DNA of 64,000 bases from Candidatus Eiseniibacteriota bacterium (GTDB lineage: Bacteria > Eisenbacteria > RBG-16-71-46): contig JBGPFC010000002.1 of NCBI GenBank assembly GCA_041483195.1, forward strand, positions 159,706-223,705, read 5' to 3'. The position numbers were made by a program, and so were the translations under genes. Each line of letters starts with the position of its first letter. Position 1 is the first letter of the stretch. The notes under the pieces are model-generated. The model was not told where the DNA came from, made no database searches, and was given only the letters and a program-made list of their open reading frames with translations. Shown one piece after another: positions 32,463 to 41,204 of the stretch.

Positions 32463-34283
32463 CTAGTAGTTCTCGGTGGAGCTCCGAAGGTCTTCGACCT
32501 TCGCCTTGCTCCGAAGTGCCGTGAGGTAGCCGACGAAGAAATTCTGCTGCCGGCGCTGCAGGATGTCCGTCGAGATCTGGCCCTTGAGCTTCGCGAACGA
32601 AGCGGTGTCGGCGGGCGTGAGCTGGTCGAGTCGCGCGAAATACCATCCGTTGAGCCCGCGCACCGGGCCGATCACCCGGCCGGGAGCCCCCGCAAACAGC
32701 GCACCGACCAGCTCGGGAACCGCCGAGACCCGCGGGTCGGGCTGCTGGCGGGTCATGCCCGAGATCTTCATGGAGATGATTCCGGCCGATTGTGCCGCCT
32801 GTTCGAGCGTGGTGCCCCGCGCCAGCGCCGCGGCGATCGCATCCGCCTTCGGCTTGCTGTGCTCGACACGCGCCTCGAGGGTCGCAAGCTGGCGCACCGG
32901 CTCCGCCACCTCCTCGCGGGGGGGAATGCCGGCGGGACGCTGCGCCGCGACCTGGACGATGGCGAATTCGTCGAGACCTTCGAACACCTGGCTGAGCGCG
33001 CCGTTCTTCGCGCTCAGCCCCCAGTCGCCGGCCTCTGGCACGCCGAACAGCACCTGGGGCGAGCCGTTGAAGTCGTAGAATTCGGTCTTGGTGGTCGCGA
33101 TTCCCTGCTCGGCCGCTGCCTTGCCCAGGCCGATGTGCGAGGCACGGGCGCGCAGCTTCTTGAGCTCGTCGATCTGGGTGCGCATGGTATTTTCGTTGGG
33201 CCGCACCTTGACCACGAGCTGCGCGACCTTGAGGCCCGGGCCGCCCCCGGGCCCTGCGGCCTTCTCGAGCAGCTTGAAGACGATGAAGCGCGTGCCGTCG
33301 AGGAGCGGATCGCTCACGTCGCCGACGTTCATCGCCGCGATCTTGGGTCCCATCACCGGACCGAACTCCGAGGGCTGGAATACGCGGTCCACGAGGCCGC
33401 CCTTGTCCGCACCCGGGCCCTCCGAATAGTCCTTCGTCAGCGCGGTGAAATCCTCGCCGCCCCGGGCGCGGCCGGCCAGCCCCTGCGCCATTTCGCGCGC
33501 GGCACGCACCTCGTCGTCGCCGATGCGCTTCGGCACGACCAGCGCCTCGAGCTGGGTGCGCGGTCCGGAGGCGAAACGAGTCCGGTACTTCTGGTACGCG
33601 CGCTCGAGATCGCCATCGGTGGGCATGGTGCCCTGCGAGTCCGCGGTGGCGAGCACCTGAACGACCGTCGCGTTCGCGCGCTCGTAACGATCCCGGAACG
33701 CGTCGCGCAGCTCGGGCTCGGACAGCTTGATCGAGGCCAGCAGCCGCTCCTGCAGCTTCCGCACCGGGAGCTGCTCGCGCACCACCGCCTCGAACGGGGC
33801 CCAGTTGTTCTTGGGATCGCGGAGCGCCTGCTGGTACTTGGCGGGGTCGAACTTGCCTCCGGTCTGGAACACCGCGGCAGTGGCCAGCGCGGCGGGCGGC
33901 GACGTTTCCAGCGCCAGCAACACCTCGCGGTCGGTCACCTTGATACCGAGCGCGCGCGCCTGATCCGTCAGCAGGCGCTGCGTGATGAGCCCGCGCCACG
34001 CCTGGAGCTCGACCATCTGCTGATCGCGCTCGGTCGGATCCGATCCGTACTGGCGCTTGTAGGCCTCGCGCTGCTCCTGAAGCGCCGCCATCCACTGATC
34101 CCGCGAGATCGGCGTGCCGTTGACGGTTCCGACCGCGCCGGTGATGCGAGCCTGCGACCCGGAGCCCAGCCCCGAGCCGAGCAGGAACACAAACCCGCCG
34201 ATGAACGAGGCGACGGTGACGAAGATGAGCACCCACCAGATCGTCTTGGTGCGCCTGGTGGCGCCGCGCAGAAATCGAAGCAT
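32463..34283 (-). CDS. PpiD/SurA-like periplasmic chaperone with a parvulin domain
   Basis: MLRFLR plus TM, a SurA_N-like VNGTPIS segment and the parvulin GEDF..L.KDYSE motif. Confidence 0.85.
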   Translation of the reverse strand: MLRFLRGATRRTKTIWWVLIFVTVASFIGGFVFLLGSGLGSGSQARITGAVGTVNGTPISRDQWMAALQEQREAYKRQYGSDPTERDQQMVELQAWRGLITQRLLTDQARALGIKVTDREVLLALETSPPAALATAAVFQTGGKFDPAKYQQALRDPKNNWAPFEAVVREQLPVRKLQERLLASIKLSEPELRDAFRDRYERANATVVQVLATADSQGTMPTDGDLERAYQKYRTRFASGPRTQLEALVVPKRIGDDEVRAAREMAQGLAGRARGGEDFTALTKDYSEGPGADKGGLVDRVFQPSEFGPVMGPKIAAMNVGDVSDPLLDGTRFIVFKLLEKAAGPGGGPGLKVAQLVVKVRPNENTMRTQIDELKKLRARASHIGLGKAAAEQGIATTKTEFYDFNGSPQVLFGVPEAGDWGLSAKNGALSQVFEGLDEFAIVQVAAQRPAGIPPREEVAEPVRQLATLEARVEHSKPKADAIAAALARGTTLEQAAQSAGIISMKISGMTRQQPDPRVSAVPELVGALFAGAPGRVIGPVRGLNGWYFARLDQLTPADTASFAKLKGQISTDILQRRQQNFFVGYLTALRSKAKVEDLRSSTENY

Positions 34284-34503
34284 GCTTGACTCCGGGCCGA
34301 TGCGAGAGCGATTGCCGGTAACGAAGCGAGCGGGGGAGTCTAGCAGCCGGTATGGAAGCGCACAAACGATGCCCGCCGAGCGAGGTCGCGATCCCCCGTT
34401 GCGGCGCCGAGCCCGCCTCACGCACGCAATGATTGCGGGGCCGCCCGGCGTGTGCTACCTGTAGCGATGGTGCCATTCCGAGTTCCACGGAGGGAGGTCG
34501 AGC

Positions 34504-35604
34504 ATGCGCAGCGAGGCCCTGGGTCGTGCGGTCGAACCCGAGGCTCCGGCGCGGCCCCCGCCGTGGCCGGTGCATGTGCTCGATGCGCTCGACCAGGCGG
34601 TCGTCGCCCTCGACCGAGAGCGCAAGGTCATCTACAACAACCGCCGGATCGAAGAGCTGCTGGGGGTCGAGGCCGGCACGTTCATCGGGATGGCCGGGTC
34701 GCGCCTGTTCCCAGGCGCCGAGGCGCGCTGGCTGAAGGGCGCCTCCCGCGAGCCGCGTGATTTCCGGTTGGAGGCCGAAGGGCGACAGCTCACGCTCAAG
34801 GCCGAGTCGCTCCCGATCCGCGACGAAGACGGCGATCTGATCGGCTCGGTCGTGCTCGCGGAAGCGATCTCCGAGACCGAGGACGGCGAGTTCCAGAAGC
34901 GCATCGACCGGCTGGTCTCGCTCGGAGAGCTCTCCGCGTACGTCGCGCACGAGATCCGCAATCCGCTGACCGGGATCCGCACCACGGTGCAGTTCGTCGG
35001 GTCCAAGCTCAAGCCACGCGATCCGAGTCGCGAGGACCTCGACGACGTCATCAAGGAGCTGGATCGAATCGAGCAGATCATCAATGGCCTGCTCATGTTC
35101 GCGCGCCCGCCCGCGGCTCGGCCCCAGCCCTGCGACCTCCACCAGGTGCTCGAGAAGACGCTCGCGCTGCTCGAGCTGCAGCTGACCGACGCCCAGGTCG
35201 TGCTGTTCCGCGAATACGCGGAGGATCTGCCGATGGTGTACGCCGATCCCGACCTGGCGCAGCAGGTGTTCCTCAACCTGTGCCTCAACGCGATCCAGGC
35301 GATGCCGGAGGGCGGCGAGCTGCACGCCGCGACCGGCGTGCGCCGCTACCGCACGCGGCGTTCGATGGTGGACGTCTCGTTTCGCGATACCGGCGTGGGA
35401 ATCCCCAGGGACCTCATGGAGAAGATCTTCGATCCGTTCTTCACAACGCGCTCGATGGGCACCGGGCTCGGACTCCCGATCTCGGTGCAGATCGTGCGCG
35501 AGGTGGGAGGGGTGATCACCGCGAAGAACAACCCGGGCGGCGGCGCGACGCTGCGCGTCTCGTTCCCGATTCCGGCCGAGTCGCCGGGACGTCCGGAGGA
35601 ATGA
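34504..35604 (+). CDS. Soluble PAS-domain sensor histidine kinase (NtrB-like)
   Basis: PAS domain, H-box AHEIRNPL, N-box NLCLNA, DTGVG, FDPFF and GTGLG; no TM helix. Confidence 0.92.
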   Translation: MRSEALGRAVEPEAPARPPPWPVHVLDALDQAVVALDRERKVIYNNRRIEELLGVEAGTFIGMAGSRLFPGAEARWLKGASREPRDFRLEAEGRQLTLKAESLPIRDEDGDLIGSVVLAEAISETEDGEFQKRIDRLVSLGELSAYVAHEIRNPLTGIRTTVQFVGSKLKPRDPSREDLDDVIKELDRIEQIINGLLMFARPPAARPQPCDLHQVLEKTLALLELQLTDAQVVLFREYAEDLPMVYADPDLAQQVFLNLCLNAIQAMPEGGELHAATGVRRYRTRRSMVDVSFRDTGVGIPRDLMEKIFDPFFTTRSMGTGLGLPISVQIVREVGGVITAKNNPGGGATLRVSFPIPAESPGRPEE

Positions 35605-35611
35605 GCTCGCG

Positions 35612-37003
35612 ATGAAGCTCTCGGTGCTGGTAGTGGACGACGAGCTGCTGATTCGCAAGTCGCTCGCGAAAGTCCTTCGCGCGCGCGGCTACGGCGTGGA
35701 TCTGGCGAGCACCGGCGCCGAGGGGCTCGAGAAGGTGGGCGAGGTCAGGCCACAGGTGATGATCCTCGACATGCGACTGCCCGACACGGATGGGCTGTCG
35801 GTCCTGCGGCGGGTGCGTCAGCTCGACCCCCTGCTGCAGGTGATCGTGATCACCGCGTTCGGCGATCTTCAGACTGCCGTCGACGCGATGAAGCTCGGGG
35901 CCTGCGACTTCCTGCGGAAGCCCTACGAGATGGAAGACATCGTGCTCGCCGTGCAGGCCGCCGGGCTCAATTTCCGGCAGGCGAGCGAGCTCGATCTCTA
36001 CCGCCGGCAGGCCTGGCGGCAATACTCCGACGAGGAGATCATCGGGCGCTCGAAGCCCATGGGAATCGTGCGCGAGCTCATCGAGAAAGTGGTGCGCAGC
36101 AAGGCCACCTCGGTGCTGATCACCGGCGAGAGCGGCACCGGGAAGGAACTGGTGGCGCGGGCGATCCACTACAAGGGGGATCGCGCCCAGGCGCCGCTCA
36201 TGGAGGTCAACTGTTCCTCCTTCCACGAGGGTCTGCTCGAGAACGAGCTGTTCGGCCACGAACGCGGGGCGTTCACCGACGCGGGGGAGACCAAGAAGGG
36301 ATTGGTGGAGCTCTGCGACGGCGGCACGTTGTTCCTCGACGAAGTCGCCGACATGTCGCTGCCCACCCAGGCCAAGCTGCTCCGATTCATCGATCACCGC
36401 AACTTCAAGCGGGTCGGGGGCGCACAGGACATCTCGGTGGATATTCGCATCGTGACGGCGACCAACAAGGATCTCGAGACCGAGGTGCGATCCGGTCGTT
36501 TCCGCGGCGATCTCTACTTCCGGCTCAAGGTGGTGAGCATCCATCTCCCGCCGTTGCGCGAGCGCGGCGACGACATCCTGCTGCTGGGGCGCCATTTCGT
36601 ACGCGAGTTCGCGCGCAAGTTTCAGAAGCGCTTCAACGAGATCTCGCCGGCCGCGGCCGAGATGCTGACCGCGTACTTCTGGCCTGGCAACGTGCGCGAG
36701 CTGCGCAACCTGATCGAGCGGGTCGTGCTCCTCGAAGAGGGCCAGCACCTGCTGCCCGAGCACCTCCCGGCCGAGTTCACCGGCCGGCGCACCGCGGGCG
36801 GCGACGCGCCGGCGAGCGGCGACGCGCTCTCGCTGCCAACGCTCGCGCAGATGGAGGCCGAGCACATCGCAGAAGTCCTGCGGCTCACGGCCGGCAACAA
36901 GAGCCGCGCCGCGCGCGTGCTCGGCATTTCCCGCCAGGGTCTCATCGAGAAGCTTCGCCGGCTGCGCATCCTGGAAGAGGGCGTTGGGCGTCAAGTATCT
37001 TGA
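35612..37003 (+). CDS. sigma54-dependent response regulator (REC-AAA+-Fis HTH)
   Basis: Receiver DD..D..K, GESGTGKE, ELFGHERGAFTDA, FLDE, WPGNVREL and a Fis-type HTH. Confidence 0.95.
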   Translation: MKLSVLVVDDELLIRKSLAKVLRARGYGVDLASTGAEGLEKVGEVRPQVMILDMRLPDTDGLSVLRRVRQLDPLLQVIVITAFGDLQTAVDAMKLGACDFLRKPYEMEDIVLAVQAAGLNFRQASELDLYRRQAWRQYSDEEIIGRSKPMGIVRELIEKVVRSKATSVLITGESGTGKELVARAIHYKGDRAQAPLMEVNCSSFHEGLLENELFGHERGAFTDAGETKKGLVELCDGGTLFLDEVADMSLPTQAKLLRFIDHRNFKRVGGAQDISVDIRIVTATNKDLETEVRSGRFRGDLYFRLKVVSIHLPPLRERGDDILLLGRHFVREFARKFQKRFNEISPAAAEMLTAYFWPGNVRELRNLIERVVLLEEGQHLLPEHLPAEFTGRRTAGGDAPASGDALSLPTLAQMEAEHIAEVLRLTAGNKSRAARVLGISRQGLIEKLRRLRILEEGVGRQVS

Positions 37004-37004
37004 C
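36990..37004. promoter_or_regulatory. Candidate enhancer (UAS) palindrome
   Basis: GTCAAG-TAT-CTTGAC inverted repeat with perfect arms, about 240 bp upstream of the predicted sigma54 start site. TTGACAC recurs at 37088. Confidence 0.4.
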
Positions 37005-37215
37005 ACCCACAAAGAAGTGGACATCTGTTGCTAACTTGAGTCGCGACATAGTCATGGAATCGTGATTCCGCGCAAGGTTCCATAAAATTGACACTTAGGC
37101 CCGCTTTCCACACCGCAGTCCCCAGTCATCCCCGCCGGTCCAGTCCCTCCTAGCAGCCCGCTGAATCAATTGCCGCAACTGGTTACAAGCCGCCTCGAGA
37201 TGACATCCGGGCTTC

Positions 37216-37231
37216 TGGCATGACTGCTGCT
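37216..37231 (+). promoter_or_regulatory. sigma54 (-24/-12) promoter
   Basis: TGGCATGACTGCTGCT has GG-N10-GC spacing and lies in an AT-richer intergenic region directly downstream of a sigma54 activator. Confidence 0.65.
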
Positions 37232-37380
37232 GATATAAAGGCGCAAGGCCTCACGGGGCACTCGGGAGCTCCGTGTCAGGGCCGCCCGGGCCGCGATCCT
37301 GGCGGCTGCCACAAGTGGATCGGCGAAGGGTCGTTCGCTTCGCCGCAGGGAGTTCAATCACAGCGAGGAGGTGATTCTCA

Positions 37381-37449
37381 ATGGCTGCCAAGAAGAAGGC
37401 TGCGAAGAAGAAGGGCACGAAGAAGAAGGCTGCGAAGAAGAAGAAGTAG
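37381..37449 (+). CDS. 22-aa lysine-repeat microprotein MAAKKKAAKKKGTKKKAAKKKK
   Basis: SD AGGAGGTGA at 37366-37374, ATG at 37381, 13 Lys codons (all AAG), TAG stop, and a terminator-like hairpin downstream. Confidence 0.75.
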   Translation: MAAKKKAAKKKGTKKKAAKKKK

Positions 37450-37477
37450 GACAACTGTCTGGACCTGGCACGTCCTT

Positions 37478-37518
37478 GGGGATTGGTCGGCTGCAATCGT
37501 CGGCCAATCCCCGCTTTC
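37478..37518 (+). terminator. Terminator-like hairpin after the microprotein ORF
   Basis: GGGGATTGGTCGGC pairs with GTCGGCCAATCCCC (14-bp stem with two G-U pairs), followed by a weak U tract GCTTTCT. Confidence 0.6.
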
Positions 37519-37561
37519 TACTGGAGCACTGGCCGCCTAGGGCGGAGGGAACAATCACCGG

Positions 37562-38128
37562 ATGCGTCCCATCTCATCGTTGAATGGATCCGCCGCCAGA
37601 GTTCCGGAGTGCCCTCCGGTCGCTCTCGTGCCCCAGCCCGCGCGCAAGAACGGCGCGGTCCGGCGTGAGCCGAACATCGCAGTCGGGTTCGGGCCCCATC
37701 TCGTATTCGACGGCACCGGCTGCCCGGTCGACCGTCTCGTGGATCTCGACCGACTCTACCGGCTGCTGGATAGCCTGCCCGATCGCATTCACATGACGAA
37801 GATCATGCCGCCTTACGTGTTTCGCCACGGCGAGCCGGGCGATCCGATGTACGGGCTTTCCGGTTTCGTCCTGATCGCCGAGAGTCACATCAGCCTTCAC
37901 ACTTTTCCCGGCCGTCACTACGTGAACGCCGATATCTTCTCCTGCGAACAGTTCGACGTCGAGGACGCGCTCGCCGCGCTCAAGTCCGCGTTCGCACCGC
38001 GCCAGACCGAGTGGAAGCTGCTCGATCGGGGCCGCGAATTTCCCAAGCACATCGCGGCATCGCGCGCCATCGTCGCGCGGGATCGCCGGCTGGTGGCCCG
38101 GGATTTGGGGCTGGAGGCATCGCGCTAG
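37562..38128 (+). CDS. Pyruvoyl-dependent decarboxylase proenzyme, AdoMetDC/SpeD family
   Basis: [23 protein letters not shown] autocleavage motif and DIFSC; RBS GGAGGGA. Substrate uncertain, so no symbol is given. Confidence 0.88.
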
Positions 38129-38157
38129 GGCTGGCCGTCTTCCTCCAGTTCGGTGCG

Positions 38158-38186
38158 GCGGCCCGCTCACGGACGAGCGGGCCGTT
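38158..38186 (+). terminator. GC-rich hairpin after the SpeD-like gene
   Basis: CGGCCCGCTC-ACGGAC-GAGCGGGCCG inverted repeat. Confidence 0.45.
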
Positions 38187-38297
38187 CGCGTGTGCGGCGG
38201 CGCGGCGGTCCCGCCCACCGCGCGTGCTATAGTCGCGCTCCGAGACGCGGCCGCACCTCCGCAGCGTGGCGGCACGTCCGCCGGACCCGAGGCCCCG

Positions 38298-41204
38298 TTG
38301 ACCGAATCGCCCGATGGTGCCGCCTTCATCCGCATCCGAGGCGCGCGCCAGCACAACCTCAAGAACCTCGATCTCGATCTGCCCCGTCGCCGGCTCACGG
38401 TCGTCACCGGTGTCTCAGGCTCTGGCAAGTCTTCGCTCGCGTTCGACACGATCTACGCCGAGGGCCAGCGGCGGTACGTGGAGTCGGTTTCGAGTTACGC
38501 GCGGCAGTTCCTCGAACGCCTTCCGCGGCCGGACGTCGATTCGATACATGGCCTCACGCCGGCCGTCGCGATCCAGCAGGTCGCGGCCGCGCGCAGCGCG
38601 CGTTCCACCGTCGGAACCGCGACCGAGGTTCACGACTATCTGCGGCTGCTGTTCGCGCGTCTCGGCACCGTGCACTGCGGGCGCTGCGGTGAGCCGGTCA
38701 CCGCAGCGAGCCCGGAGTCCATCGCGCGCGAGTCCGCGAGCTGGCCGGCGGGCGAGGCGCTGCTGGTGCTGGCCCCGATCGCGCTCTCGGAGCGCCTGAG
38801 CTGGGAGGAACAGGCGGGCCACCTCCAGCGGGCGGGGTTCACCCGCGTGCTGATCGCCGGGGAAGTCGTGCCGCTCGACCCGCTGCCGAGGCTGCTCAGG
38901 AGCACGCGACAGATCGCGGTGGTGGTGGACCGCTTCTCATGGTCGCGGGATGAGACCGCGCGCCTCGCCGAATCGTGCGAGCAGGCGTTCCGCCGGGGCG
39001 AGGGCCGGCTCGATCTGCAACGCGGCTCGCGGGCGCCGGAGCGCCGCAGCGAGCGCTGGGAGTGCGCGTCGTGCGGGGCCGCCGCCATTCGGCCCGAGCC
39101 CAGCCTGTTTTCCTTCAACAGCCCGCTCGGCGTCTGCCCCGGGTGCCGCGGGTTCGGCAACGTGCTCACTTTTACCGCCGATCTCATCGTGCCCGACCCG
39201 TCGAAGACGCTCCGCGAGGGAGCGATCGATCCATGGGCGCGATCGTGGCGCTCGATCGCGTGGCCGCGGCTGGAAAAGCTCGCGCGCGAGCGCGGGGTGC
39301 CGCTCGATGTGCCATGGGGCAGGCTCTCCGCGGCGCACCGCACGCTGCTGCTCGAGGGCGGCGAGGGATTTCGCGGCGCGATTCCGTTTCTCGAACGGCT
39401 GCAGGCGAAATCGTACAAGGCAGGCAATCGATTCGTCGTGAAGCGCTATCAGACGGCGTTGCCGTGCGAGGCGTGCTCCGGCGCGCGGCTGCGTCCCGAG
39501 GCGCTGCGGGTGCGCGTCGGCGGTCGCTCGATCGCCGAGGTCTCCGCGATGACGATCGCCGATGCCGCGCGGTTCCTGGGCGCGCTCGACTTCACGGCGG
39601 GAGAGCGCGAGGTGGCGGGGCCGGTGCTCGGCGAGCTGGCGTCGCGGCTCGCTTTCCTGGAGCGCGTGGACCTCGGGTACCTCACGCTCGATCGCATGAC
39701 GCGCACCCTGTCGGGCGGCGAGGCGCAGCGGATCGAGCTCGCGAACGCGCTGGGTGCCAACCTCACCGACACGCTTTACGTGCTCGACGAACCCACCATC
39801 GGACTCCATCCGCGCGACACGCACCGGCTGGTGGCGATCCTCCACGAACTCGCGGCGCGCGGCAACACGCTGGTCGTGGTGGAGCACGAGCCGCTCGTCA
39901 TCCGTGAGGCGGATCATCTCGTGGATCTCGGCCCGGGCGCGGGGGAACAGGGCGGACGGCTGCTCTATGCCGGGCCGGCGGGGGACGCGCTGCGCGCGGT
40001 CGAGACCGAGACCGCGCGCTATCTGCGGGGCGAGCGGCGCGTCAGCCGCCTCCGGGCGGACCGTGCCCCATTCGCGGCCACGGCACGCAGCGCCCGACGG
40101 TCGCGGAGCGCGCGGGCGTCGGGCGCCGCGCGGGTTCAGGTCGCGGCCGACGCCCCGCGGGGCCCCGGCGTGGCGCGCGGCTTCCTCACGATCGAGGGCG
40201 CGACCCACCACAATCTGCGCGACGTCACCGCGCGGTTCCCGCTCGGCCGTCTGACCGCGGTGACCGGCGTGTCGGGCTCCGGCAAGAGCAGTCTGATCGA
40301 CGAGGTGCTGTACCGGGCAGCCCGCCGCGCGCTCGAGGGACGCGAGGAGGAGCCGGTCGGCGCGCATCGCGCCGTGCATGGACTCGATGCGGTCAAGCGG
40401 GTCGTGATGGTCGACCAGTCGCCGATCGGGCGGACCCCGCGTTCGTGCCCGGTGAGCTACATGGGTGCCTACGCGCCGCTGCGCGAGGTATTCGCGCGAC
40501 AGCCCGCGGCGCTCGCGCGCGGACTCAAGGACGGCGCGTTCTCGTTCAATACCGGGGGCGGCCGATGCGAGGCATGCCAGGGCGCGGGCTGGGTCACGGT
40601 CGAGATGTACTTCCTCGCCGATCTGCTGGTGCCGTGCGACGCCTGCGGCGGCGCGCGATTTCGCCGCGAGGTGCTCGAGGTGCGCTACCGCGGCGTCAAC
40701 ATCCGCGAGGCGCTCGACCTCACCGCGGACCAGGCGTTCGAGCATTTCGCGCGCGAGCCGCGCTTCACCCGCGCGCTCCACATGCTGCGGCGGGTGGGAC
40801 TCGGCTACCTGCGGCTCGGGCAACCCGCGAATCAGCTCTCCGGGGGCGAGGCCCAGCGCCTCAAGATCGCGCGCGAGCTCGCCGACCGGAACGCCGGCGC
40901 GGCGCTGGTGCTGCTCGACGAGCCGACCGTCGGACTCCACTTCGCCGACGTGCAGCGTTTGCTCGAGGTGCTCGACGACCTCGTCGCGCGCGGCGACACG
41001 GTGGTGCTCGTCGAGCACAATCTCGATGTGATCCGCTGCTGCGACTGGATCGTGGATCTGGGTCCGGAGGGCGGGGACCGCGGCGGCTGGCTGGTCGCGG
41101 AAGGCACCCCCGATGCGATCGCGGAGTGCGAGGCGTCGTGGACGGGGCGGTATCTCCGCGAGGGCGCCGCGCAACCGGAACCCTCGCCGGCGGGCGGAAC
41201 ATGA
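38298..41204 (+). CDS. uvrA: Excinuclease ABC subunit A (UvrA family)
   Basis: GARQHNLKN, two GVSGSGKSS Walker A motifs, two LSGGEAQR signatures and Zn fingers. Probable TTG start. Confidence 0.93.

Follow-up and report, generated by a model that had tools for sequence, protein, structure and literature searches.

The described systems closest in layout to the locus reported here are the pxr locus of Myxococcus xanthus and NrsZ of Pseudomonas aeruginosa. In the pxrK-pxrR-pxr arrangement, a histidine kinase and an NtrC-like regulator are encoded just 5′ of a small gene for which a sigma-54 promoter and an enhancer-binding region are predicted, and the arrangement is reported to be conserved across its lineage (PMC5684412). 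NrsZ is encoded in the intergenic region after ntrC, behind an RpoN promoter of the TGGCAC-N5 type, and depends on both NtrC and RpoN (PMC4253122). In this study, we analyzed a stretch of 64,000 nucleotides (nt), hereafter the window, from a Candidatus Eiseniibacteriota bacterium with a genome of 4.17 Mb (GenBank assembly GCA_041483195.1, contig JBGPFC010000002.1, positions 159,706 to 223,705). The genes of a soluble kinase and a sigma-54 activator are followed there by a sigma-54-type promoter, a structured leader and a small open reading frame (ORF) for a lysine-rich peptide, which appears to be a genuine, translated gene; behind it lies the gene of a SpeD-fold decarboxylase, an optional passenger of the locus. 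Every feature that a sequence-only reading of the window had listed for this region was located where that reading had placed it, on the + strand.

The small ORF (37381..37449, + strand) encodes a peptide of 22 amino acids (aa), MAAKKKAAKKKGTKKKAAKKKK, which contains 13 Lys among its 22 residues, carries a net charge of about +13, and is written as a 15-nt unit, specifying KKK and two small residues, repeated approximately 3.6 times. Comparisons were made with a set of 41 related genomes (one of them, G026, is flagged as unpublished, and no claim hinges on it) and with a scan of one genome per prokaryotic species, in which 108 motif stretches were found and 80 of these were retrieved and inspected. 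Among the 104 motif loci pooled for ORF screening, 82 carry an intact ORF, and the 22 that lack it look like chance matches in other phyla; in 79 of the 82, a script recovered the ORF together with its start, its stop and an extended Shine-Dalgarno (SD) sequence at fixed spacing. The peptide varies from 17 to 27 aa across loci, with 11-15 Lys codons. Its 49 distinct coding sequences measure 54, 60, 66, 69, 72, 81 or 84 nt, every length being a multiple of 3, and this variation fits codons, or whole 15-nt repeat units, being gained or lost.

Within the ORF, third codon positions are the most variable. For the 22 distinct versions of 69 nt, mean entropy at codon positions 1, 2 and 3 is 0.148, 0.261 and 0.418, respectively. 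Ala and Gly codons vary synonymously (for Ala: GCC 95, GCG 102, GCT 70 and GCA 9), the spacer residues are restricted to A, G, T, V, S and P, and a low-GC relative (G039) keeps its lysines, written there as a mixture of AAA and AAG. Judged by these signatures, the small ORF is translated, because its lengths are multiples of three, its Ala and Gly codons vary synonymously, and Lys is retained in the low-GC relative. Together with the conserved SD, such marks of translation indicate that the Lys-rich ORF, which the sequence-only reading had taken to encode a peptide, is no chance occurrence. An exact look-up of the peptide among approximately 15 billion proteins gave no match. Two more small and very basic ORFs, of 31 and 33 aa, occur in the genome at C21:4439 (+) and C7:26271 (+), with SD-like sequence upstream; the 31-aa product of the former appears to resemble the small ribosomal protein bS22.

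The kinase, the activator, the promoter, the leader, the SD, the ORF of 17-27 codons, an invariant 15-mer and a terminator recur as one single-copy block, which 24 of the 41 related genomes carry, as do another 58 contigs from public data (58 of the 80 inspected); with the exception of three bins labelled otherwise, these contigs are labelled Candidatus Eisenbacteria or unclassified. Across 206 genomes of the phylum examined, most occurrences of the exact 15-mer fall in families f1 and f3; outside these two families, the form of the gene with the exact motif was seen in three genomes only. Local BLAST of flanking ORFs gave the gene order activator, small ORF, optional decarboxylase, uvrA. The constant downstream neighbor, uvrA (38190..41204, + strand; UvrA_inter, UvrA_DNA-bind and ABC_tran domains), lies directly 3′ of the small ORF in 12 of the 24 relatives and elsewhere 3′ of the decarboxylase gene where the locus extends far enough. 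The decarboxylase gene is found 3′ of the ORF in 12 of the 24 relatives and in 16 of 70 unique loci, some of which end early; it is an optional passenger. The proposal that all these parts form one signal-controlled unit consequently divides: the kinase, activator, promoter, leader, Lys-rich ORF and hairpin do form a conserved block, and the promoter and ORF stay beside the kinase and activator genes across relatives, but the decarboxylase is not a fixed member.

The histidine kinase (34504..35604, + strand, 366 aa) contains PAS_4, HisKA and HATPase_c domains and an H-box of the sequence AHEIRNPL. Its N-terminus has no hydrophobic stretch, in line with its earlier description as soluble. At a threshold of E <= 1e-60, a single-copy ortholog is encoded in 40 of the 41 relatives, and wherever contigs permit it lies about 1.9 kb 5′ of the 15-mer on the same contig. 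The response regulator that follows (35612..37003, + strand, 463 aa) displays the complete NtrC-family architecture of receiver, AAA+ sigma-54 interaction domain and Fis-type helix-turn-helix (Response_reg, Sigma54_activat at 2.8e-64, AAA_lid_14 and HTH_8), and its ortholog ends about 450 nt 5′ of the 15-mer in 22 of 24 loci, the remaining 2 being cut off upstream. The best NCBIfam matches are AtoC (440.7 bits, cut-off 714) and NtrC (402 bits, cut-off 558.6); both scores fall below their cut-offs, and an identity as NtrC or AtoC proper is not supported at the equivalog level. All 20 activator orthologs carry GAFTDA or GAYTDA at the sigma-54 contact loop. Within the genome, GAFTDA is found in 4 of 22 sigma-54 activators, namely 35612-37003, C4:70154, C2:137206 and C5:76415. 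The sigma factor gene rpoN is single-copy (Sigma54_DBD, 1 match, 213.6 bits).

The activator stop codon is spanned by the palindrome GTCAAG-TAT-CTTGAC (6-3-6; 36990..37004, no strand assigned). Among the 68 unique orthologous loci that form the base for promoter and palindrome counts, it is exact in 31 and has at most one mismatch in 49, its columns are conserved in the alignment, and the exact form occurs once in the whole 4.17-Mb genome. It is a candidate binding site for the activator, or a candidate hairpin ending the upstream operon. The predicted sigma-54 -24/-12 promoter, TGGCAT-GACTG-CTGCT (TGGCAT-N5-CTGCT; 37216..37231, + strand), would place the transcription start at about 37241. 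Its strict pattern is found in 55 of the 68 loci, compared with 0.05 of 68 in shuffled sequences, and 8 further loci retain GG-N10-GC (63 of 68 in total) next to the activator gene; in the remaining 5, a receiver-only gene occupies the promoter position. No sigma-70-like promoter was found in 36900-38400, the interval also scanned for terminators. The promoter most likely depends on RpoN and on the adjacent activator. In families f3 and f5 (L032, L033, L083, L089, L098 and L176, the last being the locus of G039), a receiver-only response-regulator gene lies between the activator gene and the small ORF, and the sigma-54 pattern is absent; at these loci, the small ORF may be co-transcribed with the receiver-only gene.

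Between the promoter and the ORF lies a leader of about 140 nt. Its structured part (37247..37307, + strand) comprises stem-loop 1 at 37247-37283, with an invariant apical CUCGGG at 37261-37266, and stem-loop 2 at 37289-37307; the predicted fold of the 293-nt transcript has a z of -1.84. When the structure, drawn by hand, was applied to 32 long-type leader sequences, 86.3% of cells were paired, compared with 76.7% in column shuffles (0 of 500 reached the observed value) and 34-46% with slid partners, and compensatory changes were found in 14 of 19 pairs (7.1 in shuffles). A second, shorter leader type exists among the loci; leaders of this type carry an extra CACGTCCTGA about 10 nt 5′ of the SD. 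The extended SD, GAGGAGGTGAT (37365..37375, + strand), is near-perfect and ends 5 nt 5′ of the ATG, and its core, GG.GGTGA, is the same in all 63 aligned loci. A search of Rfam 15 with window positions 34000-39000 gave 0 matches at E <= 1, and ten related loci gave a single chance-level match to MicL (E 0.76) and nothing further.

The ORF is followed by the invariant 15-mer GGACCTGGCACGTCC (37461..37475, + strand), a near-palindrome of the form GGACxTGxCAxGTCC that is able to form a 4-bp hairpin. Extended by the GGGG that follows, it has exactly one occurrence in the genomes of 24 of the 41 relatives, the reversed motif used as a control occurs in none, and it was found in 9 of 10 loci reached via the decarboxylase rather than via the motif. 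In families f2 and f5, the ORF is present, but the motif 3′ of it has diverged. The intrinsic-terminator-like hairpin (37477..37519, + strand; 15 pairs and a loop of 7) consists of a stem-loop at 37477-37513 and a CTTTCT tail, and is the sole terminator-like site in the scanned interval. In contrast to the invariant 15-mer beside it, the terminator stem covaries: columns 384/411 are AU in 39 sequences and GC in 22, and columns 388/407 are GC in 56 and AU in 4.

Several roles for the 15-mer were considered and set aside. It is not a LexA-type or other regulon operator for uvrA, because GGAC.TG.CA.GTCC is found once in the genome. It contains CTGGCACG, which is identical to the sigma-54 -24 consensus; a second sigma-54 promoter within it is rejected because the -12 element is missing, no GC standing at the required spacing and the distance to the next GGGG being variable. 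RNAalifold proposes a helix that joins the CACGUCC of the 15-mer to the SD. Since both segments are invariant, the helix has no covariation behind it, and occlusion of the SD by the leader or the 15-mer is not supported: SD pairing probability is 0.638 in native sequences versus 0.631 with shuffled flanks, and native pairing is the higher in 32 of 63. At the DNA level, CACGTCC is one base off the anti-Shine-Dalgarno core CACCTCC.

RNA libraries offer a further view of the locus. Small shares of a 601-nt query were found in 24 runs from 17 studies, 21 of the runs being recorded as RNA. Assembled contigs from four of these runs, each of a separate study, were aligned over the predicted unit: X1 (211 nt) spans 37254-37464 with 3 differences, X2 (166 nt) spans 37245-37410, X3 (151 nt) spans 37264-37414, and X5, a contig of a relative, spans 37380-37513. 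The X1, X2 and X3 contigs start 4-23 nt past the predicted start site. These extents are a weak hint of a discrete transcript that runs from just after about 37241 to the hairpin; the uncovered stretches 36900-37244 and 37514-37823 were not counted as evidence, and short pieces on 37381-37450 mostly belong to AAG-rich low-complexity contigs, probably of other organisms.

The gene behind the hairpin (37562..38128, + strand) encodes a SpeD-fold pyruvoyl decarboxylase paralog of 188 aa (AdoMet_dc, PF02675, 3.5e-24) with an SD of its own, GGAGGG at 37544-37549. The AESH processing site, the His and the Cys are present, and AESHISLHT and FSC align with the solved SpeD chains 2iii and 1vr7. The TIGR03330 score is 67.7 bits, under the S-adenosylmethionine (AdoMet) decarboxylase equivalog cut-off of 75.65. 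Decarboxylase matches in 20 of the 41 relatives fall into an orthologous group (56-79% identity) and a paralogous group (49-55%), and the source genome has one of each. In a scan for Lys-rich small ORFs, 10 orthologous loci had the ORF upstream and none was found beside the paralogs; the remaining three orthologous loci also carry the ORF, and the ortholog thus stands directly behind it in 13 of 13 cases from three families. The gene starts 42 nt past the hairpin tail, and no promoter-like site is present in the gap, so that read-through is the likely source of its mRNA. The check for an independent promoter accordingly went in favor of the linked arrangement: no sigma-70-like promoter lies between hairpin and gene, and co-transcription by read-through is plausible.

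The second SpeD copy, 56% identical to the decarboxylase of the window and scoring 83.7 bits against TIGR03330, overlaps an agmatinase gene (TIGR01230, 215.7 bits, cut-off 174.3) at C16:13359-14847 (= L163:5360-6848) on the minus strand; the pair resembles a route of the SpeDA-SpeB type, in which two genes lead from arginine to putrescine. The genome also encodes a homospermidine-biosynthesis protein resembling deoxyhypusine synthase (NF001980, 561 bits, above cut-off), and its Spermine_synth matches are just three, weak (34-42 bits) and all within ORFs of 560-1050 aa. Two SpeD homologs or no SpeE formed the signature that led Li et al. 2023 to pyruvoyl arginine and ornithine decarboxylases; lysine was a substrate of none of these enzymes (PMC10407285). 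The decarboxylase of the window is not filed as an AdoMet decarboxylase because of its sub-cut-off score, its agmatinase-linked paralog, the weak spermidine-synthase matches and this signature; the pattern points to the arginine or ornithine decarboxylase type, a substrate suggested by genomic context. Of the suggestion that the enzyme supplies a polyamine precursor, the SpeD fold with its processing site stands, while AdoMet decarboxylation is doubtful in view of the score (67.7 versus 75.65 bits) and the genome context.

In six relatives (L032, L033, L039, L044, L068 and L090), a conserved leader element separates the hairpin from the start of the decarboxylase gene. It reads GCG[AG]ACTCCAGTTT, then variable stems of 40-90 nt, then AGTGCGGGACGC, and finally GGAG. 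Of its metagenome matches (L179-L201), 21 of 23 have the small ORF and the 15-mer upstream, with the decarboxylase 22-25 nt downstream. The element has no Rfam match and is absent from the window; in the genus of the window, the decarboxylase has a 40-aa N-terminal extension where the element would be. It may be a riboswitch or a leader of that paralog. Elsewhere in the genome, just one more Lys/Ala-rich stretch occurs; it belongs to a basic, H1-like protein (about 113 aa, acidic tail; C51 = L167:about 911-1252), whose gene is directly 5′ of the homospermidine gene (L167:1396-2523). A Lys-rich protein upstream of this gene was rejected as a general theme, since a strict pattern finds it at 3 of 30 relatives' loci.

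Taken together, we lean, with slightly better than even confidence, towards a small coding transcription unit that is induced through a two-component system and sigma-54 and yields a polycationic peptide, the decarboxylase being reached by read-through. The PAS kinase and the NtrC-family activator encoded just upstream would switch on the sigma-54 promoter, and the resulting mRNA of about 280 nt would be translated, via its near-perfect SD, into the oligolysine peptide. The peptide, in this account the product that counts, would be a cytoplasmic polycation made in response to the signal, with polyanions as its binding partners, for example RNA or ribosomes, DNA, or polyphosphate. Transcripts would end mostly at the hairpin 37477-37519; where the SpeD-like gene is retained, read-through into it would bring a second polycation-producing activity under the same signal. 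As an extension of this account, the oligolysine could be a genetically encoded stand-in for, or partner of, polyamines, ancestrally co-expressed with a pyruvoyl arginine or ornithine decarboxylase, a single signal then raising peptide and amine polycations alike, and possibly aminoalkylated on its lysines, which we offer as a speculation with a modest chance of being right.

Several observations weigh against a peptide-centered account. In GC-rich genomes, Lys is written as AAG in 634 of 634 codons, and therefore a constraint at the nucleotide level would fit too. NCBIfam gave no family for the peptide, and a target for it was not found either. The invariant 15-mer is unexplained by a polycationic peptide. 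The contact loop of the activator reads GAFTDA where GAFTGA is canonical, and the genome encodes about 22 sigma-54 activators with strong Sigma54_activat matches; because of both, it is adjacency that links this regulator to this promoter. The RNA evidence consists of assembled contigs, in which neither strand nor ends are visible, and RNA libraries can contain DNA. Furthermore, the phylum is uncultured.

Of the other explanations, two deserve similar and rather low credence. One holds that the locus mainly produces a regulatory RNA, a small RNA of the Pxr or NrsZ type or a protein sponge, in which the AAG repeats act as A-R-N motifs, the hairpin and U tail form a chaperone-binding 3′ end, and the peptide is secondary. 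The genomic layout is the same as that of Pxr and NrsZ, invariant elements are also found beyond the ORF (CUCGGG loop and 15-mer), the transcript is structured, as leader covariation indicates, and the exclusive use of AAG for all 634 Lys codons would suit such an RNA. What makes it unlikely is the preservation of ORF, start, stop and spaced SD in 79 of 82 loci, with lengths that are all multiples of three and third positions that vary most; the low-GC relative switches AAG to AAA and retains Lys, and no Rfam family matches. The other supposes a leader-peptide gate, in which translation of the Lys ORF senses lysyl-tRNA or polyamines and sets how much transcription reads through to the decarboxylase and uvrA genes. 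In its favor, the stretch of 11-15 Lys codons has a small hairpin 6-16 nt behind it, with the terminator next in line; the constant position of the decarboxylase ortholog directly behind the ORF (13 of 13; as near as about 30 nt in L035) and the reported precedent of leader peptides such as SpeFL that control polyamine decarboxylases would also suit this scheme. However, the downstream gene is not constant (uvrA, except in the 16 of 70 unique loci that have the decarboxylase), no conserved pyrimidine partner exists for the purine-only ORF, and no conserved antiterminator pairing was found, the sole long-range helix from RNAalifold joining invariant segments without covariation. The long structured leader, moreover, stands 5′ of the ORF and not between ORF and terminator, and the decarboxylase has its separate leader element in the six relatives and in 21 of 23 metagenome matches; we regard this gate, too, as unlikely.

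Two further readings appear less probable still. One takes peptide and decarboxylase as an obligate module, with the lysines aminoalkylated by means of the enzyme's product. In its favor, the decarboxylase ortholog is placed exclusively behind the ORF (13 of 13, from three families), a deoxyhypusine-synthase-like enzyme is encoded (NF001980, 561 bits), and its upstream neighbor is the only other Lys/Ala-rich protein found in the genome. Yet 54 of 70 unique loci have no decarboxylase, the deoxyhypusine-synthase-like protein scores above the cut-off of the homospermidine-biosynthesis family, its gene has a Lys-rich neighbor in only 3 of 30 relatives by the strict pattern, and no transferase is linked to the ORF, which leaves such a module improbable. 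The slimmest chance is given to a housekeeping small basic protein, ribosomal or nucleoid-associated, with a promoter that is merely sigma-54-like. Tiny polycationic ribosomal proteins exist, and the gene is single-copy and conserved, with a very strong SD and RNA detectable in several metatranscriptomes. Against this stand the lack of an NCBIfam family match, the presumed bS22-like ORF elsewhere in the genome, the GG-N10-GC that 63 of 68 loci retain next to an activator gene, the negative scan of 36900-38400 for sigma-70-like promoters, and the restriction of the exact-motif form to families f1 and f3, three genomes excepted.

If the favored account of an inducible polycation is correct, the locus would represent a new kind of effector for stress or state in bacteria and would give a handle on the signal that the PAS kinase senses. 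Since gene callers pass over ORFs this short, a conserved and apparently expressed gene of an uncultured lineage is currently invisible in annotation. The locus also marks a regulated second SpeD-fold decarboxylase, and it extends a known arrangement, in which a small RNA gene with a sigma-54 promoter accompanies a two-component system, to a micro-gene that is coding and whose product is extreme. A literature search on lysine-rich small proteins with sigma-54 found no paper, and among the matches listed for Eisenbacteria, none concerned this locus by title or abstract opening.

Compared with known systems, the resemblances are partial in each case. Lys/Ala-rich histone H1-like bacterial proteins and tiny basic ribosomal proteins are either much longer or of specific sequence. 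The KKK/AA composition of the peptide recalls them and suggests non-specific nucleic acid binding, but no family model matches the peptide. In the speF system, the leader peptide SpeFL reportedly controls a polyamine decarboxylase; as there and in classic attenuators, a short ORF lies 5′ of a polyamine-pathway decarboxylase and is followed by a termination signal, whereas no specific arrest sequence or alternative pairing was found here, and the ORF persists without the decarboxylase. SpeDA and SpeDC, neofunctionalized SpeD homologs that act as pyruvoyl arginine or ornithine decarboxylases, are alike in genomic context: a genome with two SpeD homologs has agmatinase and homospermidine genes and apparently lacks a canonical SpeE; unlike here, the portion of the report describing them mentions neither an upstream small ORF nor sigma-54 control (PMC10407285). 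With Pxr, the locus shares a two-component activator gene followed by a small sigma-54 transcription unit; Pxr, however, is non-coding, has no sequence or Rfam similarity to the unit described here, and belongs to another phylum, while a Lys-rich ORF is conserved in the present case. NrsZ likewise is encoded directly after an activator gene and has a sigma-54-type promoter, but it is a processed non-coding RNA, and the regulator here lies below the NtrC equivalog cut-off and is one of about 22 activators. The present locus therefore appears to differ from Pxr and NrsZ, whose layout it has, in being translated and in having an oligolysine peptide as its predicted product.

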